Source of the DNA: an uncultured Planctomycetales bacterium
GTDB lineage: Bacteria; Planctomycetota; Phycisphaerae; UBA1845; PWPN01
DNA: 64,000 nt
NCBI GenBank assembly: GCA_964548565.1
Contig: CAZJTF010000002.1
Span: forward strand, 3,573-67,572
Direction of reading: 5' to 3'
The notes under the pieces are model-generated. The model saw only the letters and a program-made list of their open reading frames with translations, made no database searches and was not told the origin of the DNA. The translations under genes and the position numbers were made by a program. This document shows, piece after piece, positions 5,177-53,188 of this stretch. The number at the start of each line of letters is the position of its first letter. Position 1 is the stretch's first letter.

Positions 5177-6724
5177 CTACTCGCCGGCGACCGGCACGAC
5201 CTGCGGCACTTCAACTGGATTGCCGTCCCCCTTCGCGGAGGCCCGCCGAATGACGGCCACCGCTCCCGGCTGGGCGGCATCTCCCTCGCCCCGCGCCGCC
5301 AGCAGCGTCGGAGACGGTGCGAACTCGGTCGCGATATCCCACGTAAGGCAGTAGTCCCACGCGCGATCGCCGGTCACCTCGATCACGTACCGTCCAGCCG
5401 GAAGACTGCGGAGGTACACGTGCTCCACGTTGTCAACCGGCGAGACGCTCGCGTCGATCGGAGCTCCCGTCGTAAAGCCGTTGGCACGGCAGAGCCGAAG
5501 AGTGAGGTTGGCCATGGACGGATTGAGGCGCAGCGGGTCACCGTCCGTGATCGTCATCCTGCGATGCCAGGTGAGCAGAAAGGACGCGGAGCTCCCCCGG
5601 CGGTTCTCAGGGATCTCGAAGTAGTAGCGCTGCGGCGCCGAAGCCTCCGCCCGCCCGTAATCCCAGCCGGTCACCGGCACATCGTCCTCGCCCGGTTCGT
5701 GCTCGCCGGCGACCAGGATGCGGTAGCTGTTGTCAACGTCGAGCTGTCCGGCACCGTAGCGATAATCCAGCGGAACGGTGCCATCGGTGCAGGGCGTCTC
5801 GAACCCGCGATGCCAGTCGGTCCACGCTTGCTTCGTCGCGCCGCCCATCAGCAGTGCCTTGGCAAGCATCGCACGCGCCGCCGGACGCTCCGCGGCTCGG
5901 ACACCCGCGAGGTGCCGTCCGTCCTCGATGCCCTCGATCAGGATGGACGCACAGGCGGCGACGACCGGCGTCGCCCAGCTCGTCGCGCTCAGCGGCGCAA
6001 CCAGGTCCGGCTTGATCCGCTCCCCGTCCAGTCGAGTCGGCCCGAAACTGGACTCGCCACTCGTCAGCCCAACCGCGATGATGTTGTAAGCGCTGCACAT
6101 CAGCTTGGGCATCGCGGTGCCCGTGCCATTCTTCACGCCGGCGGTGACAACCGCACCGTCACGCTGCACGACGTAGTCAATCCGTCGCAGCACGTCGAGG
6201 TCCACGGAGTCGACGCCGAACGACCCGATCCAGCTGTGATTCTGGACCGTCCGGACTTCGTGGAGCGGCTCGAGCGAGCTGTTGATGTTGAGGAAGCCCC
6301 CCTCGGCCCAGTCGTTCGCGTCGTACGAGGCGATCTGCCGCACGCCCGGGGTCACGCTGCTCGCCACCCCGCAGTAGTACTGGGCGACCGTGGTGGCGTG
6401 GTTCGACACGCCGCTCACACCGCTCAGGCGACTGATGGCCTTCCCGGCAAACTGCGGATCGCTCACGTCGGGCATGTAATCCCGGCTGGAATTCACGGCC
6501 ATCTCGACCTGCGAAATCGTGACGGTGCTGCCTGTCGGAAGTCGTCCGCCGAGCCGCTGCTGCAGACGCGTGTAGCCGATCTCCGCCCGCCAGTCGGCCC
6601 GGGTCGTGCCCGCCAGCGCAACGATGGCGATCAGCGAAACCGCAATCCGGGTGGTCTCGATACGGCGGGAGAGGCGTTGGCGCCGGGGGAAAGGACAGAC
6701 GCTGCTGAGGAAGTAAACACTCAA
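5177..6724 (-). CDS. Secreted subtilase-like (S8) peptidase homolog
   Basis: 515 aa with a signal/anchor segment (IAVSLIAIVALAGTTRA). S8-like motifs appear in D-H-N-S order: VTISQVEMAV (Asp position reads Glu), SNHATTVAQ (His), VQNHSWIGSF (Asn), SATSWATPVVAACASIL (Ser). A C-terminal beta-rich domain follows. Confidence 0.6.
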   Translation of the reverse strand: MSVYFLSSVCPFPRRQRLSRRIETTRIAVSLIAIVALAGTTRADWRAEIGYTRLQQRLGGRLPTGSTVTISQVEMAVNSSRDYMPDVSDPQFAGKAISRLSGVSGVSNHATTVAQYYCGVASSVTPGVRQIASYDANDWAEGGFLNINSSLEPLHEVRTVQNHSWIGSFGVDSVDLDVLRRIDYVVQRDGAVVTAGVKNGTGTAMPKLMCSAYNIIAVGLTSGESSFGPTRLDGERIKPDLVAPLSATSWATPVVAACASILIEGIEDGRHLAGVRAAERPAARAMLAKALLMGGATKQAWTDWHRGFETPCTDGTVPLDYRYGAGQLDVDNSYRILVAGEHEPGEDDVPVTGWDYGRAEASAPQRYYFEIPENRRGSSASFLLTWHRRMTITDGDPLRLNPSMANLTLRLCRANGFTTGAPIDASVSPVDNVEHVYLRSLPAGRYVIEVTGDRAWDYCLTWDIATEFAPSPTLLAARGEGDAAQPGAVAVIRRASAKGDGNPVEVPQVVPVAGE

Positions 6725-6989
6725 CTTTCCAGCATCCTACTGGAGGTAGCCCCACAGGTGTCTTACCTGGGTGCGCATCTGCGCAACGATCAGGGCGGCC
6801 GCAGTGACCCCCTGGCCCCGATCGTATTCATCGGATTTTAATCAACGCGGCTACGGCGTCAAAGGGGAATCTGCCCGAAGTGCCGATGGCAGCAGGAGAA
6901 CCGTCAATCCGCCGGATGGCATGTCCTGGCGGCTCGGCCCCCCGGAGGGGTGGCGGCGCCCCCCCTTTCTGTCGACGAGTCAGGCGACT

Positions 6990-7307
6990 TCAGCGTCGAT
7001 CCAGCAGCTTGCCCAGCAGGATCCCGAAGCCGAAGGCCACAAGCAGGCTCGTGACCGGGCGCTGCTCAATCTGCTCGTGGACGTTTTCGACCGTCTGGCG
7101 GCTCTTCTTTCCGGCAACACTGAACGCGTCCCGAAGATCACCGGCCCACTTCTCCGCATTCTCCGAGAGACGCTCGCGCAGGTTCGTGGCGCCGCTGCGC
7201 CCGCTGGAGATCAGTGACTCCAGAATATCCGCAACGCTGTTCCGCAGCTTGCCGAGGTCATCGCGGAGATCCTGGACCTCATCCGACAGTTCGAATCGTC
7301 GCGCCAT
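6990..7307 (-). CDS. DUF883 / ElaB-YqjD family tail-anchored protein
   Basis: 105 aa. A coiled N-terminal part (DLRDDLGKLRNSVADILESL...) is followed by a C-terminal TM anchor EQRPVTSLLVAFGFGILLGKLL, characteristic of the ElaB/YqjD/YgaM family. Confidence 0.7.
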   Translation of the reverse strand: MARRFELSDEVQDLRDDLGKLRNSVADILESLISSGRSGATNLRERLSENAEKWAGDLRDAFSVAGKKSRQTVENVHEQIEQRPVTSLLVAFGFGILLGKLLDRR

Positions 7308-7467
7308 GTGAAAAACCTCCGATCAGCTTGGTTAACGTAGATCATATGAGGCACTTGGCGTTTTTCTATCGGGCCTCGGAATTCACTGCTGCCTCCTCAT
7401 TGGAGGACGATGGCGAGGCGGCCCCGCCCCGCGTCGGGCACGAGAAGTTTCGCCGCCGAGCTGCGAC

Positions 7468-7497
7468 TTGGCCTCGGCAAAGCACGCGGTCTATACT
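7468..7497 (+). promoter_or_regulatory. Candidate sigma70-type promoter for the CsrA-REC gene
   Basis: TTGGCC (7468-7473), an 18-nt spacer, then TATACT (7492-7497), about 60 nt upstream of the ATG at 7556. Confidence 0.3.
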
Positions 7498-7555
7498 GTT
7501 GATGTGTCACTCCTCGTCTGTGCCGTTGTCCAAACGGGTTTCAAGGTGGTAAAAA

Positions 7556-8155
7556 ATGCTCGTGATTTCCCGATGCCTGAACAGCGCGGTGCGGATCGGC
7601 GAAAACGTCACCATCAAAGTGCTGCGGATTGGACAAAAACGCGTGACCCTCGGCGTGGATGCACCGCCCGAGGTCACGGTGCGACGCGACGAGGTGGTGG
7701 ACGCGGTACGCCCCTCAAACGGCAGTGCGGAACTGCCCGGCCTCGACCTTCGCGTACTCGTGGTTGAGGATACGCCGGTGCACGCCCTCCTGATCGAGCG
7801 CGTCCTGAGCCGGCGCGGCGTCAAGAACATCGTTCGCACCTCCTGCGGCGAGGATGCCATTCGTCTTCTCACCCTCGCGCGGGAGAGCAAGGCCCTCAAG
7901 CCCGACCTGATCCTGTTGGACCTGCAGCTCCCCGGCGTCTCCGGCCTCCAGGTGCTCGAAACGGTCAAATCGCACCCGGCCCTGCGATCCATCCCGGTCG
8001 TCGTGCTGAGCTGCTCGGATTCCGATGAGGAAGTCGCGCGGTGCATGGCCGCCGGCGCCAACGCCTTCGTGTCCAAATCGGAAAGTTACGACAACCTGAG
8101 GCAGGCAATCCTTCGTATCACTGATTTCTGGAGCCAGGTGCGAAAGGTCGGCTGA
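7556..8155 (+). CDS. CsrA-like RNA-binding domain fused to a CheY-like receiver domain
   Basis: The N-terminus MLVISRCLNSAVRIGENVTIKVLRIGQKRVTLGVDAPPEVTVRRDEV aligns residue-for-residue with E. coli CsrA [47 protein letters not shown]. The remainder is a complete receiver: LRVLVVEDT, phospho-acceptor context DLILLDLQLPG, VVVLSCS, AFVSKS. SD-like AAGGTGG lies 8 nt upstream. Confidence 0.8.
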   Translation: MLVISRCLNSAVRIGENVTIKVLRIGQKRVTLGVDAPPEVTVRRDEVVDAVRPSNGSAELPGLDLRVLVVEDTPVHALLIERVLSRRGVKNIVRTSCGEDAIRLLTLARESKALKPDLILLDLQLPGVSGLQVLETVKSHPALRSIPVVVLSCSDSDEEVARCMAAGANAFVSKSESYDNLRQAILRITDFWSQVRKVG

Positions 8156-8193
8156 ATGCCCCTGCTGAATTCGGAAGGCAAGGCCGATTTGCC

Positions 8194-8222
8194 TTGACAT
8201 TCCGATCGCTTTCCTTTAATTA
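8194..8222 (+). promoter_or_regulatory. Candidate promoter for the GGA-rich leader and CBM48 gene
   Basis: A perfect -35 TTGACA (8194-8199) is followed by an AT-rich -10 region, TTTAAT (8215-8220) or TAATTA (8217-8222), giving a spacer of 15-17 nt. This is an isolated AT-rich patch in GC-rich DNA. Confidence 0.35.
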
Positions 8223-8380
8223 GAACGTGCTGCATTACGCGGCGCCAACTCGCACGAAGCGAACCTCGATCGCAATCTTCCGCCGCATGGCGCACGAGAC
8301 CGCCTCGGCCGGATGAGTGATAAAAACAATCTCAACGCAGGTGACGTGGCCGACAGCCACGCGAGAGGTGATTCCTTACG

Positions 8381-8577
8381 GGAGCGGGAAAGAGGCCCGG
8401 ACGGACCGGGTCCGCAGACCGAGCGGCAGGCTGTCGACCGCGGAGCACCCAGTCGAGGAGGAGGGGCGTGTACGGACGCAGGGGAACGGAGTCCGTGTGG
8501 TGAACACACGGAAGGCGGCATCCAGAGGACCAGCAGGGATGACAGCCATCACGGAGGTGCAGGATGGTCGCACGGGA
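8381..8577 (+). promoter_or_regulatory. GGA-dense 5' leader (candidate CsrA-binding RNA) ending on the SD and start codon of the CBM48 gene
   Basis: I count 17 GGA trinucleotides on the + strand in 197 nt, versus 3 TCC. Many sit in ACGGA or CACGGA contexts. AGCAGGGAUGA (8533-8543) and GCAGGAUGG (8558-8566) resemble the CsrA SELEX core ARGGAUG, and the latter includes the ATG at 8564. GGAGG at 8553-8557 is the SD. There is an 8-bp hairpin TCCGTGTG/CACACGGA at 8492-8512. Confidence 0.55.
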
Positions 8578-8866
8578 TCTTGAAGGCGAAGTCGAATTCC
8601 GGCTCCATAACCCTTCCGCACGACAGGTCTACCTCGTCGGAGACTTCAACGGATGGCAGGAGTGCAGCCTGCCCATGACGCGTCAGCAGAGCGGCGAATG
8701 GGTCTGCCGCCTCCACCTCCCCGAGGGCGTCTACCAGTACAAGTACCTCGTCGACGGAGAGTGGTGCCTCGACAGTGACCCGGTCGGCATCGGCTGGGCC
8801 CCCTTCGGGTGCAACTCGGTCATGGTGATGCACACCGGTGACGTGCCGGCGTTTCCCGTCGGTTGA
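8564..8866 (+). CDS. Stand-alone CBM48 / AMPK-beta-type glycogen-binding domain protein
   Basis: The 100-aa product EVEFRLHNPSARQVYLVGDFNGWQECSLPMTRQQSGEWVCRLHLPEGVYQYKYLVDGEWCLDSDP matches the AMPK beta GBD pattern (VYLSGSFNNW...LPEGEHQYKFFVDGQW..DP). Confidence 0.8.
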   Translation: MVARDLEGEVEFRLHNPSARQVYLVGDFNGWQECSLPMTRQQSGEWVCRLHLPEGVYQYKYLVDGEWCLDSDPVGIGWAPFGCNSVMVMHTGDVPAFPVG

Positions 8867-8975
8867 ACTTGACACCGGCCGCCGCGTTCGGTTTCCTTGT
8901 CCCACGGACGCGTCGCGCGGATCGGCCGAGGGCCGCGACACGCCCGGTCGATGCCTGAGTCACAGGGATTCAGCC

Positions 8976-9006
8976 GCCGCCCGCACCGCGCGGGCGGCTT
9001 TGTTTT
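8976..9006 (+). terminator. Rho-independent terminator after the CBM48 gene
   Basis: A 9-bp GC stem GCCGCCCGC (8976-8984) / GCGGGCGGC (8990-8998) with a 5-nt loop is followed by TTTGTTTTG. Confidence 0.7.
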
Positions 9007-9027
9007 GCCCTCGCCCGGAACCACGCC

Positions 9028-9519
9028 ATGCCAGCACATGTCGGTGTCATAATGGGTTCGCGATCGGACTGGGAGACGATGCAGCACTGCGCCGCCACCC
9101 TGGAGGCGCTGGGCATCGGGTTCGAGGCCCGTGTGCTCTCTGCACACCGCACGCCCGACGCGGCCCTGGAATATGCCGCCACCGCCGAGAGTCGCGGGCT
9201 GCACGTGATCATCGCGGCCGCGGGAGGCGCAGCCCATCTGGCTGGCGTGATGGCCGCCAAGACCGCCCTGCCCGTCCTCGGCGTCCCCATGCAGTCGCAG
9301 AGCCTGCAGGGGCTCGACTCGCTGCTCTCCATGGTGCAGATGCCCGCGGGAATCCCGGTGGGAACGCTCGCCATCGGCAAAGCCGGCGCGATCAACGCCG
9401 CCCTCTTCGCGGCCGCGATTCTCGCGCGCCACGACGCGAACGTCCGCACCGCCCTCGAGCGGTATCGGTCGGATCAGACCAAGAAGGTGCTGGCGAGTTC
9501 GGACCCGCGCCAGGGCTGA
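9028..9519 (+). CDS. purE: N5-carboxyaminoimidazole ribonucleotide mutase
   Basis: 163 aa. [16 protein letters not shown]...VLSAHRTPD...[29 protein letters not shown]...[19 protein letters not shown] is the canonical PurE sequence pattern. Confidence 0.92.
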
Positions 9520-9529
9520 CCGCGCCCTG

Positions 9530-10513
9530 TCAGAACACCCGGCTCAGTTCCCCGCGTGCGCCGTTGAGGACACGGTCCCAGTCGAACGCCGGCCCCGGGT
9601 CGATCTTGCCGCGCGTAATGTGCCAGTGGCCGAGGAGCCCTGACCAGGCGTTCAGCTCTTCCTCGGTCATGACGTCGGCACGCACCCGCCCGTCGGCGTC
9701 GCGCGGGACATCCAGTTTCATCCTCGGGAAGACGCGTGTCAGCGCGGCGCACAGCCGGATCATCGCCGTGTACTGTTCGGGCGTGAAATCGTACTGCACC
9801 AGGTCATGGCCGTTGATGCGCCCGCGCACCACCTCCGGCCGGGCCGGTCTGCCCACGAACCCCGGCGTGCGGATGCCCCCGTCCCCCATCCACGCCGGCA
9901 GCGTGATGCACGGCCAGGCGAACGCGTCGAGGCTGTACCACTCATTGAGCGTCCGCATGTCCGGGTACGCCCCGATGTGTGCAATCTCGACGCCGATCGA
10001 GCGATCGTTGGCCGTGCCTGCATGCCACGCCCGCTCCTTGAGGTCGAGCGTCTGGTACAGCGTGCCGTCAATGTCCAGCATGAACTGCACGGACAGCCCG
10101 CGAACATCGTGCAGGATCTTGAAGCACTGCTGGGAGGTGCCGCAGACGTCGTAGTGAATCACGAACTGGTCCACCGCCTGCTGCAGGTTGGGGAGAGTCC
10201 AGCCGTCCTTCGCGACCGCCTGCTCGAGTTCCGGCGAAAGCTTCTTACGGACGCCGTAGCGGTTCGGGTCGTCCTTCGACACCGGCGCTTTCGGCATGAT
10301 CTGGTCCGACTCGAAATGTCGCCGGCAGCGATACGCGTCATAGCCCCCGGGATCCGTCCAGAGCACGACCGGCGTCCCCGTATGGAAAAGCTGGCCGGCC
10401 GCGACGATCTCGTCCCCTTTCCGCTCCACGCGATCACCCGGACGCCCGCATCCGGTGCAGGCGATGACCGCGCCGCAGACAAGCACTCCCCACGCCTGAA
10501 AGCCGCTCCGCAT
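9530..10513 (-). CDS. N-acetylmuramoyl-L-alanine amidase (Amidase_2/PGRP fold), secreted or lipoprotein
   Basis: 327 aa. The signal plus Cys reads WGVLVCGAVIACTGC. The core FVIHYDVCGTSQQCFKILHDVRGLSVQFMLDIDGTLYQTLDLKERAWHAGTANDRSIGVEIAHIG is AmpD/PGRP-like. Confidence 0.75.
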   Translation of the reverse strand: MRSGFQAWGVLVCGAVIACTGCGRPGDRVERKGDEIVAAGQLFHTGTPVVLWTDPGGYDAYRCRRHFESDQIMPKAPVSKDDPNRYGVRKKLSPELEQAVAKDGWTLPNLQQAVDQFVIHYDVCGTSQQCFKILHDVRGLSVQFMLDIDGTLYQTLDLKERAWHAGTANDRSIGVEIAHIGAYPDMRTLNEWYSLDAFAWPCITLPAWMGDGGIRTPGFVGRPARPEVVRGRINGHDLVQYDFTPEQYTAMIRLCAALTRVFPRMKLDVPRDADGRVRADVMTEEELNAWSGLLGHWHITRGKIDPGPAFDWDRVLNGARGELSRVF

Positions 10514-12257: not shown

Positions 12258-13900
12258 TCAGTTCGGACACTGCGGATGCTGGGCGGCGACGAACGGCACG
12301 TTCGGCCCGGTCGCGCATTCCAGGAAATCCGCGAAGTCCAGGCTGTTGACGACGTTGTCGGCGTTCAGGTCCGCACAGAAACACCCGGACGCAGGCGCGC
12401 CGGTCGGGTTGTAGCACGCCTGGAACGCGCCGAAGTCGTCCATGTCCACGTCGCCGTCGCGATCCGAATCGGCCGCCGGAGAACCGCAACCCTGCAGCAG
12501 CAGCCGGACTGTGATCGGCTGGCTGAGGTCAACCTGCGGGTTCTGATGTGGCATGTCCGGCGTGTTGCTGGCGTCGTTCGTCGTCAGGCGAACCCACCGC
12601 GCCGCCGCCAGGCTGTTGAACTGCCACTCGACCCGCAGCGACTTGCCCGCCCCGTCCGCAACGCCGGCATCGACCGCCGACACGTTTGGCTGGACCAGCA
12701 GGTACCCCGTCGTCGCCGATGCCCGCGGCTCGCGGAACATCGCCGGTTCATCCACCGTCAACTGGTCGAAATCGGCGATCAGCGTCGAGCCGTTCATGAC
12801 CGTGTCAATGTAGACCTTGTAACGCCCGGTGTTCGCCGTCGTCGGCGTGAACGCCAGGTGCTCGAGCACGCCGAACGACCCGTCGAGTGCCCCGTTGCCG
12901 TTCGAGTAGCTCAGGACCGGATCCGTACCGCCCCGGTTGGCCGCATGGAACGTGAACGTCTGCCAGCCGGCGCCCGGCGTCAGCAGTTTGCCGACCGGCG
13001 CACTTCCGCCGGAGGAGCCCGTCGCCCCCACCCACTCGATGGCCTGCCCCGTTCCCGGAGCGCCTGCATCCGCGCCGATCGGCCCCGCCAGGGACGTGTT
13101 CTCCCGGATCCCCAGCGTCACCCGCAAGGCATCGTTCCGCCCGGCACCCACAACCGGCCCGGTGAACGCCTTCGCGCCTTCAATAGCCGTCGTGCACGAG
13201 GACGTCGCGGGCTGATACGTCTGCGTCGCCACGATGGTGTCGCCCATCACGAGCGGCTCCGTCAGGAACACGGTCGCTTCGGGAGCCCCGCCCGGGTCGC
13301 CTGTGCCCAGCAGCGTCCAGGTGTCGGGCGCGTGCGTGTACTTGTAGACGGACACCAGCGTCGCCGCGGGGTTCTGGCTCACGCCGGTGACCCGCAGTTC
13401 CGTGGCGCCGGCCTCGACCGGACCCGGGATCGAAACCGCCTTCACATCCGACGGCAGGCACGGGCGCGGCCCGCGGACCAGCTTGATGTTGTCGATCAGC
13501 ATTCCGACGTACTTGGCGTTCGCCGCGCTCTTGCCGGCATCCCAGGTCCCGCAGTTCGTTGAGAACGCGATCAGCAGGTCATCGCCTGCGTTCGCCGTGA
13601 ACGTGTCCGTCAGAACCCGGATCGGCTGGCTGCTGTTGTCGAAGTAGCCGTCCTGGTCCGGCGTGAGCGGGCCTGTGTAGTTGCCGATCGGCGAAGCGAT
13701 TGCCGGCAGAGCGCCGGTGCTCGGCCGGTGAGCCCCGTTGACCACCACGCCGACCTGGTACGACCGGATGAAATCCTTGTCGTAAAGGTCGCCGCGCTCA
13801 TCCACCAGCATGTCTACCTGCAGGTGGTACTGGTTACCGATGGCTGGATTCGGATCCGCGGCGGGAATCACCTGCTCGAATTTGGCATACGCACCGTTAC
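12258..13900. repeat. DNA-level paralogous repeat (copy 1), 3' half of paralog A
   Basis: The 3' ends of A and B align at the nucleotide level over the dockerin and C-module, with long runs of identity such as ggctgttgaactgccactcgacccgcagcga versus ggctgttgaactgccattcgacccgcagcga. Protein similarity continues to about residue 520 from the C-terminus. Confidence 0.7.
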
Positions 13901-15491
13901 CCCAGCCGTGATCGGCAATGTCGAGGCAGTTGCTGCCCGCAAGCTGCGGCGCCGTGACCTCGCTGCCCGTCGAACCCGTGCGGAGGACTTCCGTGTAGGC
14001 GTTGCTCGCCACGTCGTACCACGTGCGATACGCCGTCCCGACGCCCGACTGCACGATTGCCACCGCAGTCTCGAAATCCTCGATGATGCCCGCCCCCTTC
14101 ACGGCCACACCGGAGCCGGGCGTGCACCCGTGCAGCCCGCGGCTGCCCTGCGTGGCCTTGAGGATCTGCCCGTTCACGAGCGCGGGAACGTTGACGACAG
14201 TGGTTGGAGAGCTGACGGTCGTGTTGTTCGTCCCGACCAGGACGTCGTCCGCATAAACCCGGACCTCGGTGGCGCCCGCGCTCACGCCCGTGACGCGCAC
14301 GGCCGTTTCACCCTCGGAAATCAGCCCCACGATCCGCACCGCCGCCATCTGGGCGCAGTCCCCGACCTTCAGCCCCGTCGTGGGAGCGCACCCGGCAAGT
14401 CCCCGGATCGTCTGGGTCGCGCCGATCACGTGCCCATCCTGGACGGCCGGCAGACCGGTCACCGTTACGCTCGTACTGCCCGGACCCGGCGGGACCGCGA
14501 ACGTCACCGTCTTCAACTGCGTGTTGGCCGTCACGTCCCAGACCGTCACCGCCTCCGCGCGAGTCGCGTCCACCCCCGTCACCACGACGGAGGTATCGCC
14601 GGCCAGCAGGACCGAGTTGGCTGCCTGCACGCTGACCGCCGGAACCTGATTGCAGCCGTCCACCTCGATGCCGAGGTAGTCGATGCAGCTGGTCGCACTG
14701 CCGACGGTCTGAGTCGCCGATACCATGTGCCCGCCAAGAGCGCTCAGGTTGACCGGGACGTCCTGCGATGCCGGAGTTGCCCCGGCGCCAGGGAGCGGGA
14801 AAGAGGTGAGCAGGGTGCTCACGTTGTTGAAGTTGTCGTAAATGTGGACGGCCGTCGCGTTCGGATCGAGCCCCGACACCGTCACCGTCGTGTCCGTGTG
14901 AAGCAGCGGGCTGGGAGCGGTGATCGTCGGATGCGCGAGATTGACGTCGCAGTCCGCCGAGACGAGCACCCATTTCACCGCGTCCAGGTAGAAGCTGCCG
15001 CTCAGGTCGTTGTTCAGGTTGTTGATTTCGACCGTGCCGGCGTCGATGCCCGCATTGAAGGCGAATCGCCCCAGCGACACCCACGTGTTGACGCTCGCGG
15101 TCTGATCGATCGCCACGTCCGTGCTGCCGTCGCGGTGGGTCACCGTGTGGCGGATGTTGGCTCGCCGGTTCGCGCCGGAGCCCCAGGTGGTGAAGACCTC
15201 ATAGGTGCCGGCGACGCTCAGGTCGGCCTTGAAAAAGCCCCGCTTGGTGCCCACGACGGAGCGGTACGTACTCGCGTAGCGTGAGCCGCCGACCGTGGCG
15301 ATGGGGGTGCAGGCCTCAGCCGTGCTCTTGGCCCCACTGTTAGCTAGCGCCGGCGTTTCGGAGTACTTGTTGAAGTTCTTGCCGCCGCTCCGGCTCTCCA
15401 CGATGTAGTCCGCAGCCAGCGCCGGGCCGGCCGACGCCAGCACCGTCACCGCCAGCACTGCCGCGATAAAACCTCTGTGACGGGTTATCAT
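12258..15491 (-). CDS. Secreted multidomain surface protein, paralog A (golvesin-like N-domain, Ig-like repeats, conserved bipartite C-module, dockerin-like tail)
   Basis: 1077 aa with signal peptide MITRHRGFIAAVLAVTVLASAGPALA. The N-domain reads YIVESRSGGKNFNKYS...GSRYAST...TYEVFTTWGS. About four ~90-aa repeats each end in ATQT..G...C. The C-module reads LRVTLGIRENTSLAGPIGADAG...GVLEHLAFTP...YKVYIDTV then MFREPRASATTG...LRVEWQFNSLAAARWVRLTT...VDLSQPITVRLLL. The tail is DSDRDGDVDMDDFGAFQAC...DLNADNVVNSLDFADFLEC. Confidence 0.85.
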   Translation of the reverse strand: MITRHRGFIAAVLAVTVLASAGPALAADYIVESRSGGKNFNKYSETPALANSGAKSTAEACTPIATVGGSRYASTYRSVVGTKRGFFKADLSVAGTYEVFTTWGSGANRRANIRHTVTHRDGSTDVAIDQTASVNTWVSLGRFAFNAGIDAGTVEINNLNNDLSGSFYLDAVKWVLVSADCDVNLAHPTITAPSPLLHTDTTVTVSGLDPNATAVHIYDNFNNVSTLLTSFPLPGAGATPASQDVPVNLSALGGHMVSATQTVGSATSCIDYLGIEVDGCNQVPAVSVQAANSVLLAGDTSVVVTGVDATRAEAVTVWDVTANTQLKTVTFAVPPGPGSTSVTVTGLPAVQDGHVIGATQTIRGLAGCAPTTGLKVGDCAQMAAVRIVGLISEGETAVRVTGVSAGATEVRVYADDVLVGTNNTTVSSPTTVVNVPALVNGQILKATQGSRGLHGCTPGSGVAVKGAGIIEDFETAVAIVQSGVGTAYRTWYDVASNAYTEVLRTGSTGSEVTAPQLAGSNCLDIADHGWGNGAYAKFEQVIPAADPNPAIGNQYHLQVDMLVDERGDLYDKDFIRSYQVGVVVNGAHRPSTGALPAIASPIGNYTGPLTPDQDGYFDNSSQPIRVLTDTFTANAGDDLLIAFSTNCGTWDAGKSAANAKYVGMLIDNIKLVRGPRPCLPSDVKAVSIPGPVEAGATELRVTGVSQNPAATLVSVYKYTHAPDTWTLLGTGDPGGAPEATVFLTEPLVMGDTIVATQTYQPATSSCTTAIEGAKAFTGPVVGAGRNDALRVTLGIRENTSLAGPIGADAGAPGTGQAIEWVGATGSSGGSAPVGKLLTPGAGWQTFTFHAANRGGTDPVLSYSNGNGALDGSFGVLEHLAFTPTTANTGRYKVYIDTVMNGSTLIADFDQLTVDEPAMFREPRASATTGYLLVQPNVSAVDAGVADGAGKSLRVEWQFNSLAAARWVRLTTNDASNTPDMPHQNPQVDLSQPITVRLLLQGCGSPAADSDRDGDVDMDDFGAFQACYNPTGAPASGCFCADLNADNVVNSLDFADFLECATGPNVPFVAAQHPQCPN

Positions 15492-15929: not shown

Positions 15930-17560
15930 TCACTCCGTGCACTGCGGGTGCTCCGCCGGAACGAACGGCACATTCGGGCCGGTCGCGCACTCGAGGAACT
16001 CCGCGAAGTCCTGCAGGTTCACGACGTTATCGGAGTTCAGGTCCGAGCAGAAGCACGCCGATGAGGGCGCCCCGGACGGCTTGAAACACGCCTGGAACTC
16101 GCCGAAGTCGTCCATATCGACGTCGCCATCGAGGTCAAAGTCGGCCGACGGCAGGCCGCAGCCCACCAGCAGCAGCCGGACCGAAACCGGCTGGCTCAGG
16201 TCGATCTGCGGGTTCGAGTGCGGCATGTCCGCGCTGTTGGCATCGTCGAACGTCGTCAACCGCAACCACCGGTTCGCCGCGAGGCTGTTGAACTGCCATT
16301 CGACCCGCAGCGACTGCCCCGCGCCGTCCGCGACGCCGGTGTCAACGGCAGAAACGTTCGGCTGGGTCAGCAGGAACGGTGCCGTTGTGCCCGAGTGGCT
16401 CGGGACCCGGAACAGCGCCACGCTGTCGGCCTCCAGCCCCTCGAAATTGGCAACAACCGTCGCGCCGTTCATCACATTGTCGATGTAGACCTTGTAGCGA
16501 CCGGTATTCTCGGCCGTCGGCGTGAACGCCAGGTGCTCGAGAATCCCGAACGCCCCGTTGAGCGTCGTGTCCCCGGCGTTGAAGCTCAGCACCGGGTCCG
16601 TACCGCCCCTTCCTTCCGCCCAGAAGGTCACCGTCTGCCACTCGCCGCTCGGAGCGATCAGCTTGCCGACCGGCGCATTGGCGCCGCTCGATCCCGTCGC
16701 GCCGACCCACTGGATCGTGCTCGTCGCGATGCCGCCGTCCGCACCGATGGGACCGGTCAGCGCCGTGTTCTCACGCACGCCGAGCGTCACCCGCAGCGGG
16801 CTGTTCTTACCGAGCCCCACAATCGGGCCCGTGAAGTGCTTCTCGCCTTCCATCTCTGCCGTGCACTCCGCGACGGCCGGCATGTACGTCTGCGTCGCGA
16901 CGACTGTCCACCCCGTCTCCAGGGCCGTCGTCAGCGGTACACTCACATCCGGAGCCCCGCCGCGAGCCACCGTGCCCAGCAGCGTCCAGGTATCCGGCGA
17001 CGGTGTGTACCGGTACACCGAAACGAGGGATGCCGCCGGGTTCTGGCTGACGCCGCTGACCTGCAGTTGTGTCGCCCCTGCCTCGACTGGTCCGGGGATC
17101 GAGACAGACTTGACGTCCGACGCCAGGCATGGCCGGGCGCCGGAATTCAGCTTGATGTTGTCAATCTTCATGCCCGGGAAGGGAGAGGTCGGCGCCCCGC
17201 CGCCCTGTGTGTAAGTCCCCACGTTCGTCGCGAACGCGATGAGCAGGTTGTCGCCGGCGTTCGCCGTGAACGACGACGTGAGCACCACCACCGCCTGCGT
17301 GGCCGTCGCACCGTCAAGGTCCACCGTGAGCGGGCCGGTGTAGTTCCCGATGAGCGAACAGGCAGCGATCTGACCGCCGGGCGTACGATGAGCCCCGTTG
17401 ACGATCACGCCTGCCTGGAAGTTGCTGAGCCAATCCAGATCTCCTGCGCCGACCTCATCGATGAGCATGTCAATCTGCAGGTGGTAGGTCCCAGTAGACG
17501 GGATCACCTGCTCGTAGACAGCGTACATGCCGTTGCCGAAACCGTTGTCGGCAAAACGGA
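15930..17560. repeat. DNA-level paralogous repeat (copy 2), 3' half of paralog B
   Basis: See copy 1 (12258-13900). This is a tandem, same-strand duplication separated by a 438-bp intergenic region. Confidence 0.7.
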
Positions 17561-19190
17561 TGCATTGACTGCCGAACAACGTGCTGATCGTCGGAGTTGT
17601 CGCCATGAATCCGGAATCGCCCGCGTTGTACCACACCCGGTTGGTCGCACCGCTGGCAGGCGGATTCCCGGTGATCTTGGGATACACGCCGTCGGTCAGG
17701 TTCGTCGTCAGGTCTCCGAAGTCCTCAATGAGATTCGCCGCCATGACGCGCCTTCCGGCAGTCGGGAGGCAACCCGGGATACGAATGGTCTGTGTTGCCT
17801 TGATGATCTGCCCCTCCACCAACGCCGGAACGGTCACGAGGGTCGTCCCTGCTGTTGCCGGCGCGTTGGTGACGATCGGAGCATCATTAGCGTAGACGGT
17901 CACCCCCGTGGCACTCGCACTGACCCCGGAGACACGTACGACCGTCCGGCCGGCATCGACGAGACCGACGACGCTCACCGCAGGCACCTGGCCGCAGGCT
18001 CCGACAACCGCACCGTCCGTCGGCGGGACGGTACAGGGCGCCAATCCGCGGATCTCCTGGATTGCGGCCACGGTTGCGTCCGCAGTCAGTGAGTTCGGGG
18101 CGACGGATACGTTCACCGTGCTCGCCCCGCCGGGCGAATTGTTCGTGCCGATCAGCGTCCCGTTCTGGTACACCTTCACCGCGGTAGCCTGCGGATCGAC
18201 GCCGGAGACCGGAACACTGGTATCGCCGGCCACCAGGACCCCGCCGATTGTCACGCCTCCAATCTGGTTACAGTTGTTGGTCTGCGGCCCATCCTTCAAT
18301 GCACACCCTTCTGCCCCCCCGATCGTCTGCGTGGCATTGATGTTTGCGTTCGCGGGCAGTGACGTCGTGGTGGCGATCACGGTCGTGGCGCCGCCTGTCG
18401 GAGTCCCCGTCGGAGGGTTCGACACGTTCAAGCCGTTGGCGTAAACCTTCACCACGGTTGCCGCGGGATCGACGCCGGTCACCGTCACGGTCGTGTCCCC
18501 CGTCAGCACCGGCGTCCGCACGGAAACCGTGGGAACACCCGTACAGACCGCGTTGGGGTTACGGAAGAGGACCGCGTCCGCCATCAATCGATTCGTGCCC
18601 GCCGGCTCCATGACCGCGTTGGTCGCGACGACCGTGTAGGTGACTCCCGCGTTCATCGGGTAGGCCATCGTGCCGATCTGGTGCCATTCATGCTGCCCGA
18701 CGTTCCTCTGGTTGAAATTGGACGTGACGCTCCCGCCCTCGTAATTGAGGGTGTACTGAACGCTGGAGTCGCCGGTGCTTGATTGCCCCCATGTAGCATA
18801 CACCTCGTATGTTCCGGTCTCGACGGGGGTAAAGCTGAAGGTGGCGCTGGACGTGGTCTGGGTCGAGAACTTGCCGCCGATTCCGGTGGTCAGGTCGTCG
18901 TCTGTGCGATTCGGACATGCAGGAACGCTGGAGCACGTAATCCGCGTGGGGAACCCCGCGACATTGGGGTTGCTGTGGGCACTGGTATAGAACCATGTGC
19001 CCGACCGCGTCGCATTCGTCAGGGTGTGATTGCCATACAGTGTGTTCGCCGGAGGCGGATTGGCGTTCGCACTGTTGTCATCACCCATCTCCACCACATA
19101 GTCGACGACAACGCCCAGAGCAGTGCCTGACGTGGCGAGCACGGCCAGCACCGCCATCCCGGCCGCCAGATACGTTTTGCTGGTGTTCAT
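15930..19190 (-). CDS. Secreted multidomain surface protein, paralog B
   Basis: 1086 aa with signal MNTSKTYLAAGMAVLAVLATSGTALG. The architecture matches A. The C-module reads LRVTLGVRENTALTGPIGADGG...GILEHLAFTP...YKVYIDNV, LFRVPSHSGTT...LRVEWQFNSLAANRWLRLTT...IDLSQPVSVRLLL. The tail is DFDLDGDVDMDDFGEFQAC...DLNSDNVVNLQDFAEFLEC. Confidence 0.85.
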   Translation of the reverse strand: MNTSKTYLAAGMAVLAVLATSGTALGVVVDYVVEMGDDNSANANPPPANTLYGNHTLTNATRSGTWFYTSAHSNPNVAGFPTRITCSSVPACPNRTDDDLTTGIGGKFSTQTTSSATFSFTPVETGTYEVYATWGQSSTGDSSVQYTLNYEGGSVTSNFNQRNVGQHEWHQIGTMAYPMNAGVTYTVVATNAVMEPAGTNRLMADAVLFRNPNAVCTGVPTVSVRTPVLTGDTTVTVTGVDPAATVVKVYANGLNVSNPPTGTPTGGATTVIATTTSLPANANINATQTIGGAEGCALKDGPQTNNCNQIGGVTIGGVLVAGDTSVPVSGVDPQATAVKVYQNGTLIGTNNSPGGASTVNVSVAPNSLTADATVAAIQEIRGLAPCTVPPTDGAVVGACGQVPAVSVVGLVDAGRTVVRVSGVSASATGVTVYANDAPIVTNAPATAGTTLVTVPALVEGQIIKATQTIRIPGCLPTAGRRVMAANLIEDFGDLTTNLTDGVYPKITGNPPASGATNRVWYNAGDSGFMATTPTISTLFGSQCIRFADNGFGNGMYAVYEQVIPSTGTYHLQIDMLIDEVGAGDLDWLSNFQAGVIVNGAHRTPGGQIAACSLIGNYTGPLTVDLDGATATQAVVVLTSSFTANAGDNLLIAFATNVGTYTQGGGAPTSPFPGMKIDNIKLNSGARPCLASDVKSVSIPGPVEAGATQLQVSGVSQNPAASLVSVYRYTPSPDTWTLLGTVARGGAPDVSVPLTTALETGWTVVATQTYMPAVAECTAEMEGEKHFTGPIVGLGKNSPLRVTLGVRENTALTGPIGADGGIATSTIQWVGATGSSGANAPVGKLIAPSGEWQTVTFWAEGRGGTDPVLSFNAGDTTLNGAFGILEHLAFTPTAENTGRYKVYIDNVMNGATVVANFEGLEADSVALFRVPSHSGTTAPFLLTQPNVSAVDTGVADGAGQSLRVEWQFNSLAANRWLRLTTFDDANSADMPHSNPQIDLSQPVSVRLLLVGCGLPSADFDLDGDVDMDDFGEFQACFKPSGAPSSACFCSDLNSDNVVNLQDFAEFLECATGPNVPFVPAEHPQCTE

Positions 19191-33378: not shown

Positions 33379-36300
33379 TCAGTTCGTGCACTCCGGGCTT
33401 GCGGTCGTGTTCGCCCCGCTGAAGCAGTTCATGAAGAGCGCGAAATCGGTGTCATCCACGTCCGAGTCAGAATCGAGGTGAGCCCGCGCACACTTCGGGT
33501 TGTTTTGGTCCGCCACCCCCGAGAAGCAGAGCTGCAGGTAGCCGAAGTCCGCCTGGTCGACGTCCCCGTCCCCGTCGAAATCCGCCCGCGGCGGACACGC
33601 CTGCTCGACGCCGTCAATGTAGACCGTCAACGGGCCGGCCGCCTCAACCGGGCTCAGTGCCAGATGTTCGAGCACGCCCCGACCGGTGGGCGTCCAGAGC
33701 ACGCCGTCGCCTGTGTACGCTTTCGCCGCCGGCGCGGGCAGGAACGTGATCGTCTGCCACGTTCCCGGCTGCGCGGTCACCAGCAGGCCCTGCGGAGCCC
33801 CGTCGACCACGCTGTCGGCACCCACCCACTCGATCGTGCCCGTGGTCCCGCCGTCCGCGCCGATCGGCACGTCGACGTTCGTCTCGCGGACGCCGAGAGC
33901 CACGCGCAGCGAACCGCTGTCCAGCCGCAACCGCAGCCGGACCGGCCGATGCAGGTCGATCGCCGGATTCGCCACGCCTGGCGTATCCGCCGTCGTCAGC
34001 CGCAGCCAGCGCCCCGGCGCCGTATCCGCCCACTGCCACTGGACCTTGCAGACTTGGCTGCCGTCGTACGCCGCCACCTCGCTGGTCACGGCGGCGAGAT
34101 TCGGAGATTCAAGCAGGTGCTGCTGCGTCGCTGTCGAGAACCGCGGCTCCCGAAACAACACCGCTGCACCGTCCGGCTGCCCCTCGAAGTCGGCGATCGG
34201 CGACACGATGCACCGCGCGCTCAGCAGGAAAGCCATAGCCCGGGCCATGATGTCGTTGCGCACCGCCGGCGAGCCGATCGTCTCGAACGGCAGCGCCAGC
34301 ATGACCACGCGGTACCCGCCGGAGTCGTACTGAATGCCTGCGCCCATCCCACCGCCGTAGCTCAGGATCTGCACCGCACCTGCACGCGGCGCGATCCGGT
34401 CCGGCGCGAAGGCGACATACGGCGCGCCCGCCTGCGTGCTGAAACTGAAGGCCGGTACATCCTGCATGATCCCCCCGGTGCCCGACACGGTGAATGTGGC
34501 CGCATCATCAGCGACCCAGTCGGCGCGAAGAATGTTCTCGTAGAACGTCCGCCCGGCGTTCAGGCTGTCGAGTTCGTAGCCGATGTCCGTGCCGCTCACG
34601 AACAGCCCCCCGCCGCCGGCCAGCCAGTTCGTCAGCAGCGACTGCTCCGTCGCATCGAATGTCCTGTCCGTTTCCGATTCGCGCCCGAGGATCCACACCA
34701 CCGCCTGGTAGGCCCGCAACGGCACCTGCCCCGCGACGATCGCCTCGTTCGAGCACGAGTCGAAGCTGACACCCGCCGCGCCGACCGCCGACGCGTGCTG
34801 CACGATGTAATCGAACGAGTTCACCACCCGCGGGATCGTCCGCTCGATCGTGCCGGCCGGGATCAGGTCGAGAAGGTCCTGCTTGCGGTCCACACGGTCG
34901 TAGCCGTTCACGATCAGCACCTGCGCCGGCCCGCTCGACGGAACCCGCACCGCCAACGTCTCCGACGGCATGGACTCGCCGCCCGCGTTGCAGGCGGCCA
35001 CCCGCAGGTAGGTCGTCTCGCCTGCCGGGATGTCGGTCAGGGTTGTACTCAGGTTGTTGCCGACGTCGACCCCCTGGCCAAAGCCGTAACCGTTGCTGGA
35101 GCGGTAGATCTTATAGCTGGTGGCGAAATCTCCACTGGCCGGGCTCGACGGTCGCGACGGACCTGCCTGCCAGGACACGACGACGCCGGCTCCGGCCTGG
35201 TACCGCGCCTCCACCCGCTCCGGCGGGTCCGGCAGGAACACGGTGGGCACCTGCGTCCCCGGGAAGATCGTCGGATCCGACAGAAACTGCACGATCCCCT
35301 GCACCGTGGAGCGTGCGATCGCGTCCCGCACCTTCAGGTCGCGCATCAGCGCCGCGTCCTGCATGTTGTCGTGGAAGGCCACCTCGAGAAGCGCCGCGTC
35401 GAACTCGTTCGAGTTGTTGGCCGTGCTGATCGCCCCGTATGCGAAGTTCTCCCGGAAGTAGGTGTTGGGCTCGCGCTCGCCCCACGGGTACTCGAACCGG
35501 TCGTCGATGGCCAGCATGTCCGCTTCGAGTTTCTCTCCGAGGATCCTCGCGTACTGAATCTGGTTCGTCGTCGCCCGGATGTCGTTGTACACGCCGACCA
35601 CGCCGCGCCCGTCCGCCGCGTTCGAGTGAAACTCGATGTAGACGCGCCGCCACCGGTCGTTATTGACGTCCGTGCGATTCATCTCGCGTGCCCAGCGGGC
35701 CGCCGTCCCCACGTTGTCATCGGTGTCCGTGTCGGCGGAGTCCCAGATGCTCGACGGCAGCCCCTCCGCATTGATGCCCGCCTCGCTCTCGGCCCAATAG
35801 CGCTGGGCCTCTTCATCCCGCCCGTATCCGCTCACCGTGTTCAGGTTGCCGCCGCGCACGCTCCCCATGCCGTTGCCGAAGCGGATCGCGTCCGCCACGA
35901 CCGTGCTGATCGTCGACGCCTGGTTGGAGATCTCGACGTAACCGCTCGTGCCGGCCTCGAAATGGAAATTCCCCAGCCAGATCCAGCCTTTGCCCACCAC
36001 CTGGTGATCGATCCGCACCTCCGCCGTTCCGCCGCTGTGCCGGATGCGGTAGAGCTGCTTCACGCGGTCCGTGTTGTCGCGCGTCCAGCAGTAGACAGGG
36101 TAGAAGTCCGCCGCCGGGATGTTCGGCGTGTAGCGCGCCGTGGCCGTTTCGGTCAGGCTCGATGTCGTGTAACGATAGCGCACGCCGCTGCCGGTGACGC
36201 CGTTCTCGTAGTACTCGGGCGCGTCCGAACTGTTGCTCCAGGCGCCCGTCCACGTCACGCCCGGATCGTCGTTGTCCAACACGATTTCCCGGTCCTGGTA

Positions 36301-36996
36301 GCCAACCGGTCGGAACGGCACGACCGTCGCGCCGGCGTTGTACAGGTAATGCACGAAGCAGTTGAGCTGGTCGATGTTCCCGTAATCCTCGACCATGCTG
36401 AAGAGGAGCGGCCGCTGCAGCACCCAGCCCGCGCTTCCCACCGTCCAGCCGTGCCCCCCGGTGCAGAAGACCACCACGCCGCTGAGCGCGCCGGCGGGCT
36501 GCCCGTCCGCGTTGGCCAGCGGGCCTCCGGGCGAGGCGAGTTCCGCTCCCGCAGCCTTCGGCCGAACGACATCCGGTACGGATCGGACCACCGGCGCCGG
36601 TGCCGACGGTTCCTGCACCAGCGAGCCCAGGCTCCGCAGCGTGCCGGCCGATCGGATCTGGACACCCAGGCCGCGGATCTGGCGGATGGACGCGATCCCC
36701 CCGCGGATCACTTCATCGATCCGTTCCGCACGGCTTTCGGGGAACGTCGGGACAACCGCACCCGCGGGGAGCGCCAGCACGACCCGCGCAACCGCCTCGG
36801 GATCCACCGCCAGCGACTCCAGCACCGTCCCCGCTGGCAGGAGTGGGTCCGCCCCACCGGATAGTCGCGCCACGGCGGCAGCGACTGCATCCGAAAGGGG
36901 GTTGCCGGACGCGTCCTGCTCTGCGGGCGACCGCGACACGACCAGGAGAACCATCGTCAGGAAATGAACGAACCGCAACGGGCGGGGATCACACAT
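33379..36996 (-). CDS. Secreted Amidase_3 (MurNAc-L-Ala amidase)-containing surface protein, paralog D, with permuted C-module and dockerin-like tail
   Basis: The preferred start is MCDPRPLRFVHFLTMVLLVVS (36996, with AGAGG SD). The track start is 37041. The Amidase_3 motifs are FCTGGHGW, YIEFHSNAADG and LLEVAFHDN, with a golvesin-like insert (VTWTGAWSNS...RYRYTT...FYPVYCWT...GWIWLGNFHF) and an FN3-like segment. The C-module halves run in the order LFREPRFS...RWLRLTT...VRLRLRL then LRVALGVRETN..PIGADGG...GVLEHLALSP..VYIDGV. The tail is DFDGDGDVDQADFGYLQLC...DSDSDVDDTDFALFMNC. Confidence 0.8.
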   Translation of the reverse strand: MCDPRPLRFVHFLTMVLLVVSRSPAEQDASGNPLSDAVAAAVARLSGGADPLLPAGTVLESLAVDPEAVARVVLALPAGAVVPTFPESRAERIDEVIRGGIASIRQIRGLGVQIRSAGTLRSLGSLVQEPSAPAPVVRSVPDVVRPKAAGAELASPGGPLANADGQPAGALSGVVVFCTGGHGWTVGSAGWVLQRPLLFSMVEDYGNIDQLNCFVHYLYNAGATVVPFRPVGYQDREIVLDNDDPGVTWTGAWSNSSDAPEYYENGVTGSGVRYRYTTSSLTETATARYTPNIPAADFYPVYCWTRDNTDRVKQLYRIRHSGGTAEVRIDHQVVGKGWIWLGNFHFEAGTSGYVEISNQASTISTVVADAIRFGNGMGSVRGGNLNTVSGYGRDEEAQRYWAESEAGINAEGLPSSIWDSADTDTDDNVGTAARWAREMNRTDVNNDRWRRVYIEFHSNAADGRGVVGVYNDIRATTNQIQYARILGEKLEADMLAIDDRFEYPWGEREPNTYFRENFAYGAISTANNSNEFDAALLEVAFHDNMQDAALMRDLKVRDAIARSTVQGIVQFLSDPTIFPGTQVPTVFLPDPPERVEARYQAGAGVVVSWQAGPSRPSSPASGDFATSYKIYRSSNGYGFGQGVDVGNNLSTTLTDIPAGETTYLRVAACNAGGESMPSETLAVRVPSSGPAQVLIVNGYDRVDRKQDLLDLIPAGTIERTIPRVVNSFDYIVQHASAVGAAGVSFDSCSNEAIVAGQVPLRAYQAVVWILGRESETDRTFDATEQSLLTNWLAGGGGLFVSGTDIGYELDSLNAGRTFYENILRADWVADDAATFTVSGTGGIMQDVPAFSFSTQAGAPYVAFAPDRIAPRAGAVQILSYGGGMGAGIQYDSGGYRVVMLALPFETIGSPAVRNDIMARAMAFLLSARCIVSPIADFEGQPDGAAVLFREPRFSTATQQHLLESPNLAAVTSEVAAYDGSQVCKVQWQWADTAPGRWLRLTTADTPGVANPAIDLHRPVRLRLRLDSGSLRVALGVRETNVDVPIGADGGTTGTIEWVGADSVVDGAPQGLLVTAQPGTWQTITFLPAPAAKAYTGDGVLWTPTGRGVLEHLALSPVEAAGPLTVYIDGVEQACPPRADFDGDGDVDQADFGYLQLCFSGVADQNNPKCARAHLDSDSDVDDTDFALFMNCFSGANTTASPECTN

Positions 36997-52406: not shown

Positions 52407-52479
52407 GTGGAGGTCCGGACAGCGAGCCCGGATCCTGACAAGCGCCGCCGGGCCTGTCGCGGCGGCTGGAAAGGATACC

Positions 52480-53103: not shown

Positions 53104-53188
53104 GACAGGCGGAAAAGCGCGGAAACTGGAAGTTTCGCACAACCTACGGCGGATGCCGGCAATGCACCGGCAGGAAGGCCGGGCAGGA

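Follow-up and report, generated by a model that had tools for sequence, protein, structure and literature searches.

CsrA proteins are global post-transcriptional regulators with a historical link to glycogen. They are not known to be controlled other than indirectly, through decoy small RNAs or protein antagonists such as FliW and CesT. To our knowledge, RNA is bound by few response-regulator outputs, of which ANTAR is the main one studied. Here, we analysed a locus of an uncultured Planctomycetales bacterium in which a CsrA domain is fused to a response-regulator receiver (REC). The locus lies in a 64,000-nt stretch of contig CAZJTF010000002.1, analysed as a whole and referred to as the window, and comprises the gene of the fusion protein (csrA-REC), a non-coding gap of 408 nt and the gene of a free CBM48 protein. 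These three parts, recognised in a first-pass annotation of this DNA, are all present as placed there, and each of the two open reading frames shows a gene-like codon bias (GC content at third codon positions of 0.80). Comparison with related loci indicates that they belong to two predicted transcription units, and that what connects these is a conserved promoter with a two-hairpin element, not the GGA richness of the gap. We are aware of no experimental work on a CsrA-receiver fusion or on a free bacterial CBM48 protein; none of the titles listed by a limited literature search concerned such a fusion, and mentions of it in domain censuses may have been missed.

CsrA-REC is a fusion of 199 aa, unlike the stand-alone CsrA proteins of about 60-75 aa with their C-terminal helix. 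The CsrA domain is N-terminal (residues 1-47) and is followed by a disordered linker of about 15 aa and a C-terminal receiver of the Rcp1 type. The protein matched the Pfam profile of CsrA (PF02599) over residues 1-51 of the 53-position profile (55.5 bits, cutoff 27) and Response_reg over residues 67-185 (78.8 bits, cutoff 30.2); the NCBIfam csrA equivalog scored 50.8 bits, under its full-length cutoff of 70-73. As expected of the CsrA/RsmA/RsmE family, the N-terminal 47 residues align without gaps with solved structures, and the CsrA part gave gapless alignments to E. coli CsrA 1-53, RsmE and B. subtilis CsrA. The residues that contact RNA reportedly fall in regions 2-7 and 40-47, with R44 being singled out, and the importance of individual CsrA residues is known from alanine scanning and from structural work on RsmE-RNA. 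Most of these contacts, R44 included, are kept in the CsrA domain of the fusion (L2, R6, V40, V42, R44 and E46), and two positions carry substitutions (L4 to I and I47 to V).

The AlphaFold2 monomer model of CsrA-REC reached a predicted local distance difference test (pLDDT) value of 88, with values over 90 in the receiver and confident beta2-beta4 strands in the CsrA part. Residues 47-57 of the linker were below 50, and no helix was modelled after beta5, which means that the canonical C-terminal helix of CsrA is not predicted. The fusion therefore departs from the family in that a disordered linker replaces this helix and a receiver is attached at the C-terminal side. The model is less confident at residues 1-10 and 40-50, as would be compatible with the strand swapping of a domain-swapped homodimer, the usual form of CsrA. 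In the receiver, the acidic pair E71/D72, the acceptor D122, S152 and K174 were nearly invariant in 26 fusions. The closest solved relatives are of the Rcp1/RcpA type (3heb, 1k68, 1k66 and 1i3c), and the C-terminal FW helix is shared with Rcp1, RcpA and RcpB; unlike those stand-alone receivers, REC here carries a CsrA domain. Both domains of CsrA-REC are thus predicted to be intact. A database search retrieved 56 clusters (90% identity) containing both domains, all from metagenomes or metagenome-assembled genomes, with Phycisphaerales and Phycisphaerae as the only organism names; their source annotations read 'carbon storage regulator CsrA', 'Rcp1' or 'response regulator'.

Two described modes of control resemble what such a fusion could do. 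The best structure matches of the CsrA part include the FliW-type CsrAs 1t3o and 5dmb and, as in antagonism by FliW or CesT, a protein module at or near the C terminus of CsrA could modulate RNA binding. Unlike FliW and CesT, the modulator would be a covalently fused phospho-receiver, so that control would come from a histidine kinase. The ANTAR regulators AmiR, NasR and EutV also combine a receiver with an RNA-binding output, which acts on paired leader hairpin loops; the fusion differs from them in its unrelated fold, in the N-terminal position of the output domain and in a likely action on translation or stability rather than on antitermination.

The best match of the protein encoded downstream, by sequence and by structure, is the carbohydrate-binding module (CBM) of AMPK beta (1z0n, 1z0m). 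It scored 54.8 bits against AMPK1_CBM (cutoff 26.8) and 45.8 bits against CBM_48 (cutoff 22.4), and its best solved relatives are the glycogen-binding modules of AMPK beta1 and beta2 (E = 1.8e-12 for the beta1 CBM). The AlphaFold2 model (pLDDT 81) gave Foldseek top matches to the AMPK beta CBM with a probability of 1.0 and target-normalised TM-scores of 0.74-0.79. Residues W31, K60 and W67 align to W100, K126 and W133 of AMPK beta, which are said to be the sugar contacts of rat beta1, and both W31 and W67 are invariant or nearly so across the orthologues. From these alignments and this model, we infer that the protein binds glycogen. Unlike the AMPK beta module, it stands alone at 100 aa, lacking a catalytic or scaffold partner, and it ends in a family-specific PAFPVG tail common to the orthologues, which are 54-72% identical. 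A representative search with the CBM48 profile returned mostly multi-repeat CBM48 proteins and was uninformative on free 100-aa forms.

The window was compared with 16 further distinct family loci, designated by L numbers. A profile search of contigs with the receiver-containing alignment returned mostly generic receivers (1 true family locus out of 80), and 3 loci came from scanning metagenomes with the CsrA part. On one strand, csrA-REC, a gap of 292-690 nt and CBM48 follow each other in the window, L086, L096, L097 and L100. This order, found in five loci with different genes beyond CBM48 (purE, a GH43 gene, a small open reading frame, Bac_transf and an unknown gene), bears out the neighbourhood conservation on which the first-pass annotation had made its proposal depend, and the gene order supports the view that the three parts form an evolutionary unit. 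CBM48 lies 3 kb away in a sixth, distant locus: in L085, the deepest branch of the family tree, a histidine kinase, a REC gene, csrA-REC and a divergent CBM48 are found within 4 kb. No CBM48 was in view in L081, L084, L088, L090, L091, L094, L095, L098 and L001, and L099 has a CBM48 orthologue with its leader element and no adjoining csrA-REC. Simple inheritance of the two genes as neighbours, with no functional link, might explain why CBM48 is directly downstream in only 5 of about 16 csrA-REC loci. This is highly improbable, given that the outer flanks are different in every locus, that the association recurs in another geometry in L085, and that, from genome to genome, both genes have a leader element in common.

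In L081, L085, L086, L090, L097 and L098, csrA-REC has histidine kinase or single REC genes as neighbours, and in L081, L085, L090 and L098 it is a histidine kinase that adjoins it. The single REC neighbour is 41% identical to the REC of the fusion. In L098 (1112-4680), the genes of CheR, of a hybrid kinase (GAF-HisKA-HATPase-REC) and of a single REC protein come after csrA-REC, a cluster that is a candidate for a complete signalling pathway of the fusion.

The shared leader element, consisting of a sigma-70-like promoter (P2) and two hairpins (HP1 and HP2), was present in 16 family loci. The promoter layout was conserved in 14 of the 16 (-35 box TTGAC[ATG]/TTGAT/TTGCTT, spacer of 16-18 nt, -10 box TAnnnn); the two others are L088, which has no promoter part, and L095, where the contig is cut. 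HP1 starts 3-20 nt after the -10 box (at most 7 nt in most loci) and HP2 4-14 nt further, with 33-51 nt from the -10 box to HP2. The HP2 pattern TCGCAMGANGCGA matched family loci only, always on the + (gene) strand, and had 0 matches in 80 unrelated loci. Since MAFFT gave no structural alignment of HP1, a covariance model was built from three loci. This model matched the HP2 site of the window with E = 2.4e-7 and recovered the remaining loci; in the 64-kb window it gave no second significant match, and two weak antisense ones (E 0.09 and 0.78).

In the resulting alignment, whose covariation figures are indicative because it was fitted to the model and includes three probable false matches, 95.7% of the cells were paired (20-55% in slid controls), 7 of 9 pairs had double changes (equalled in 0 of 500 shuffles), and in HP1 all 5 modelled pairs had changes on both sides (0 of 500 shuffles reached the observed values). 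Decisive for covariation are the HP1 stems as read directly in the loci: GCUGC/GCGGC, GUCGC/GCGAC, GGCUGCA/UGCAGCC, GACGC/GCGUC, GGGCC/GGCCC and GUCGGC/GCCGAC. As HP1 covaries, the element points to RNA rather than to DNA. HP2 keeps the loop A[ACU]GAN on a stem that is usually UCGC/GCGA, and the loop is retained where the stem is GGC/GCC (L091, L094) or CGC/GCG (L085, L095). Retention of the loop despite stem changes is the pattern expected of a loop-specific protein site. HP1 was flagged as a minus-strand terminator in L086, L099 and L100. This reading was rejected, as there is no converging minus-strand gene and the A/T-rich -10 box, read on the other strand, accounts for the T-run.

The element heads CBM48 in 7 loci, L099 and L085 included, at 172-528 nt before the start codon, and csrA-REC itself in 6 (L081, L084, L091, L094, L095 and L098), at 40-203 nt. 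L081 is the closest relative of the window and yet of this self-leader type, which indicates that the arrangement changes quickly. A second motif, CA[ACG]GA, accompanies HP2 in most loci. As CA[AC]GA it stands at +40 to +42 from HP2 in the window, L097 and L090, and the copy in the HP1 loop reads GCAAGA in L100 and L085; in L096 and L081 it reads CAGGAU, which is the canonical core bound by CsrA with high affinity. The window copy (site 3) includes the 11-mer GCGCACGAGAC (8291-8301), of which an identical copy was found in the csrA-REC leader of L098 (about 203-213). Hairpins with an ANG(G/A)N pentaloop occur at 3.5 per kb in the leaders and 0.42 per kb in the rest of the window; without the HP2 copies that define the set, 7 remain against about 2 expected by simple arithmetic, and the leader of the window has only 3.

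Several further sequences were noticed around the element. The sequence GGCACGAGAAG (window 7437-7447), upstream of P1, the candidate promoter of csrA-REC, is similar to site 3 and may be a further CA[AC]GA-site copy upstream of csrA-REC. L100 has a second, exact HP2 copy, TCGCAAGAAGCGA (1439-1451), 4 nt into the CBM48 frame (ATGG-TCGCAAGAAGCGA), and codons 2-4 of the window CBM48 (8567-8573) repeat the first 7 nt of HP2, TCGCACG; an HP2-like copy at the CBM48 start may have arisen by coincidence from the coding sequence, or it may act as another operator, placed over the start codon. Five loci have a second conserved box, CGCGCCCGAATCCC[TG]GCCATGG, situated about 140-250 nt 3′ of HP2 and with GAATCCC in common with the HP2 3′ flank; it was not found in the window even when 3 mismatches were allowed. 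As the start of a minus-strand peptide (MAGIRAR...) this box was rejected, the similarity ending, by eye, after 8 codons. L099 (2440-2655) and L090 (5682-5950) have a common long-range stem, GCGCTGGCGGTCCG ... CGGGCCGCCAGCGC, 3′ of HP2, which suggests a discrete structured small RNA of about 200 nt in some genomes. In L088, a CT-rich low-complexity repeat, CTTTCCCACCTTCTCAC..., follows the RNA element (about 6000-6075) and may be a tandem repeat or an assembly artefact.

The promoter of this element bears directly on the first-pass annotation, which had bracketed the whole block by a candidate promoter at 7468 and a terminator at 8976-9006 and had read it as a possible self-contained module. 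This drawing amounts to a single operon, with one transcript 7468-9006 and the gap as intercistronic region. The terminator was confirmed by the terminator scan; no terminator was found at the equivalent place of the orthologous loci scanned. P1 is present as a 9/12 match to consensus, but no conservation was found when it was compared with L096, the locus of most similar arrangement. Read-through out of csrA-REC is possible, as the window has no canonical terminator after this gene, only a hairpin without a T-run that overlaps the -35 box of P2 and falls outside the terminator-scan criteria. The conserved internal promoter, however, means that the two brackets delimit no single transcription unit. 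Furthermore, L097 has an intrinsic terminator between csrA-REC and the P2-type promoter, and in L099 CBM48 retains its leader without a neighbouring csrA-REC. A single operon is thus very unlikely. Predicted independent expression of CBM48 from its own promoter, an outcome that the first-pass annotation had itself set against its proposal, defeats the operon picture, and a post-transcriptional link between regulator and target survives it.

Quantification of the GGA content of the gap revealed 16 triplets, against a window mean of 8.25 per 408 nt. The 14 GGA of the T-poor tract in front of CBM48 (8381-8563; G 43%, T 8%) are the maximum of 12,764 stretches of 183 nt scanned on both strands (mean 3.46, standard deviation 1.95). 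Mononucleotide shuffles of the tract gave a mean of 8.0 GGA (p = 0.01 for at least 14), and the excess comes partly from the purine-rich composition. The five ACGGA motifs of the tract fall within 8401-8555, a count unmatched elsewhere in the window. One of them forms the loop of a canonical CsrA-type hairpin (8394-8412), in which the GGA has an unpaired probability of 0.99-1.00. In the second hairpin of this kind (8547-8559), the loop and the 3′ arm overlap the CBM48 Shine-Dalgarno sequence GGAGG (8553-8557), 6 nt upstream of the ATG. Apart from this tract, at least 13 GGA per 183 nt are reached only at 44371-44563 and 48691-48873 (+ strand); these stretches are coding, and both lie inside a 2058-aa TSP3/Big_5/fn3 repeat protein (43184-49360). 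A conserved small open reading frame in the gap was considered and rejected, since tblastx against the orthologous gaps gave no conserved coding.

At 7.6 GGA per 100 nt, the density of the tract is CsrB-like, and a small RNA made from P2 might titrate CsrA-REC in the way of CsrB/RsmZ, with CBM48 being merely the next gene or reached by read-through. Such an RNA would fit L088 and L090, which have it beside csrA-REC without CBM48, and L099, where the RNA is followed by a terminator-like stem with T6 and a new -10 box, TGTTATAAT, before CBM48. In the window, however, the terminator scan found none between HP2 and CBM48, and an Rfam scan of 6500-10000 at E <= 1 gave zero matches. Across the family, GGA density is not conserved, and the element directly heads csrA-REC, 40-56 nt from its start, in L081, L091, L094 and L095, as a leader would. 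Unlike CsrB/RsmZ, the gap has no conserved GGA density and no Rfam match. By the tests run it does not appear to be a CsrB/RsmZ-type RNA, and a decoy role is distinctly unlikely. Depending on the genome, the RNA may serve as a leader or exist as a small RNA of its own.

Altogether, we tentatively favour the possibility that a phosphorylation-gated regulator of the CsrA type binds the loops of the leader and thereby controls CBM48 as well as, in other genomes, its own gene. The locus would then represent an atypical response regulator with a CsrA-type RNA-binding output, its cis-RNA partner and one target gene. The P2 transcript would start at about 8229, carry HP1 and HP2 at its 5′ end, and extend through a 300-nt leader and CBM48 to its end at 8976-9006. 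CsrA-REC would act as a dimer recognising A-N-G-(G)-A loops, with putative sites in HP2, in site 3 and in both ACGGA hairpins, the one at 8394-8412 and the one that overlaps the Shine-Dalgarno sequence. The conserved operator of CsrA-REC would consist of HP2 together with its partner site in the 5′-terminal part of the transcript, and the added ACGGA hairpins of the window would extend control to the CBM48 ribosome-binding site. Binding would alter how the CBM48 mRNA is translated, how stable it is, or both. Phosphorylation of the Rcp1-type receiver at D122 would alter the RNA-binding activity, and the sister genomes with the same leader before csrA-REC would be subject to autoregulation. The binder of HP2, the direction of control and the effect of phosphorylation are what we infer in this model.

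Several observations weigh against such a role of CsrA-REC. In the protein, R7 of CsrA is not conserved, being C in the window and C, S or G across the fusions. In the RNA, the conserved HP2 loop ANGAN lacks the GGA core that canonical CsrA proteins need, and HP2, at 172-528 nt from the CBM48 start, is too far away for simple occlusion of the Shine-Dalgarno sequence. L086 and L097 have 4 GGA each in the 183 nt before the CBM48 start, which is the background level, and the hairpin over the Shine-Dalgarno sequence is conserved in neither. GGA richness, by which the first-pass annotation had described the RNA, thus does not define it, the conserved loop being A-N-G-A-N. The fold of the whole leader was no better than that of shuffled sequence (z = -0.91), so that structure is supported for local hairpins only. 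L088, L090 and L093 carry the element after csrA-REC without a visible downstream gene; what lies beyond these RNA-only elements is unrelated, with a GFO_IDH_MocA oxidoreductase gene in L090 and nothing that matched a family in L088. Finally, no histidine kinase was found anywhere in the 64-kb window.

Co-regulation by a third factor would explain equally well why csrA-REC and CBM48 share a leader; this is the main rival explanation, although an unlikely one. Such a factor would act on the shared promoter and the HP1/HP2 leader, the two genes would belong to one regulon, and CsrA-REC would bind other, unseen GGA targets. Candidates are a transcription factor reading the TCGC-N5-GCGA inverted repeat as DNA, another RNA-binding protein or an RNase; alternatively, the element may be a simple 5′ stabiliser. 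Co-regulation would account for the presence of the element before both genes, for an HP2 stem that is nearly invariant and not covarying, and for the missing GGA in its loop. This reading is harder to reconcile with the covariation of HP1, which points to RNA, with the variable distance between the -10 box and HP2 and with the variant GGC/GCC stems that retain the loop. Furthermore, CsrA-REC is the only conserved RNA-binding protein in the neighbourhood.

The positions of the features discussed are compiled in Table 1.

Table 1. Features of the csrA-REC/CBM48 locus (window coordinates unless a locus is named)
Feature	Position	Strand	Evidence or remark
orf105, tail-anchored DUF883/ElaB/YqjD-like, 105 aa	6990-7307	-	Divergent from csrA-REC, upstream
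Candidate promoter P1 of csrA-REC (TTGGCC, 18 nt, TATACT)	7468-7497	+	9/12 consensus match; weak evidence
csrA-REC gene, 199 aa	7556-8155	+	Two Pfam domains above cutoffs
Hairpin 3′ of csrA-REC stop codon (AAGGCAA / TTGCCTT), without T-run	8175-8195	+	Read from sequence
Internal promoter P2: TTGACA (8194-8199), 17 nt, TAATTA (8217-8222)	8194-8222	+	Layout conserved in 14/16 family loci
HP1 hairpin GUGCUGC AUUAC GCGGCGC	8227-8245	+	Predicted 5′ end of P2 transcript; folds in every locus
HP2 hairpin UCGC-ACGAA-GCGA, A-N-G-A-N pentaloop, candidate operator	8250-8262	+	Near-invariant
Site 3: GGCG-CACGAGAC-CGCC	8289-8304	+	Second CA[AC]GA motif, 40 nt 3′ of HP2
GGA-rich, T-poor tract, 14 GGA and 5 ACGGA in 183 nt	8381-8563	+	Window maximum
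Hairpin GGCCCGG-ACGGA-CCGGGUC, canonical CsrA-type A-N-G-G-A pentaloop	8394-8412	+	Hairpin scan
Hairpin CAUC-ACGGA-GGUG	8547-8559	+	Hairpin scan and sequence reading
Stand-alone CBM48 / AMPK-beta-type protein, 100 aa	8564-8866	+	Pfam above cutoff
Intrinsic terminator: 9-bp all-GC stem (8976-8998), 5-nt loop, TTTGTTTT	8976-9006	+	Terminator scan
Second conserved box, other loci	L088 5762-5783; L089 2394-2415; L090 5958-5979; L093 2002-2023; L100 1131-1152		

The divergent 105-aa gene upstream of csrA-REC (orf105) is kept in 4 of the 5 loci with the csrA-REC-CBM48 order. Genes of 104-106 aa occupy the same position in L086, L096 and L097, with a tblastn match in L086. The product has a weak match to NCBIfam PRK10132 (4.9e-6) and a weak one to YtxH, and orf105 may belong to the module. 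In the remainder of the 64-kb window, no other REC gene and no glycogen-metabolism gene were found. Three large proteins of 1077-1220 aa (12258-15491, 15930-19190 and 33379-37041, - strand) have a Golvesin_C domain each, and one of them has a weak Amidase_3 match below the Pfam cutoff. A trigger factor gene followed by tandem ClpP paralogues (52378-53103 and 53153-53827) occupies 50862-53827 on the + strand.

In its layout, the leader recalls two described targets of CsrA. Its candidate A-N-G-(G)-A loop hairpins, one of which lies over the Shine-Dalgarno sequence, match the design of classical glgC-type repression. As in flhDC, two sites would be placed at the very start of a long leader and thus at a distance from the Shine-Dalgarno sequence. 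In the flhDC case, E. coli CsrA reportedly protects the 5′ end of the mRNA from RNase E. HP1 and HP2 lie within about 40 nt of the predicted transcription start, and the likeness to flhDC serves as a working analogy only. With somewhat more reserve than the binding model itself, we consider it possible that the fusion has a relaxed loop specificity (A-N-G-A-N or A-N-G-G-A), that the HP1/HP2 operator acts on its own mRNA and on that of CBM48, that the fusions form a kinase-controlled output class, and that they link an environmental signal, at the post-transcriptional level, to the biology of the glycogen granule in Phycisphaerae.

If this were true, the RNA binding of a CsrA domain would be directly under phosphotransfer control, and a further RNA-binding output would be added to those of response regulators. 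The comparative data offer a compact test system, made up of a single regulator, a candidate operator of 13 nt whose loop is defined, and a small, conserved gene as its putative target. The system also opens a first way into what free bacterial CBM48 proteins do, and it echoes, in a distant phylum, the link between CsrA and glycogen.

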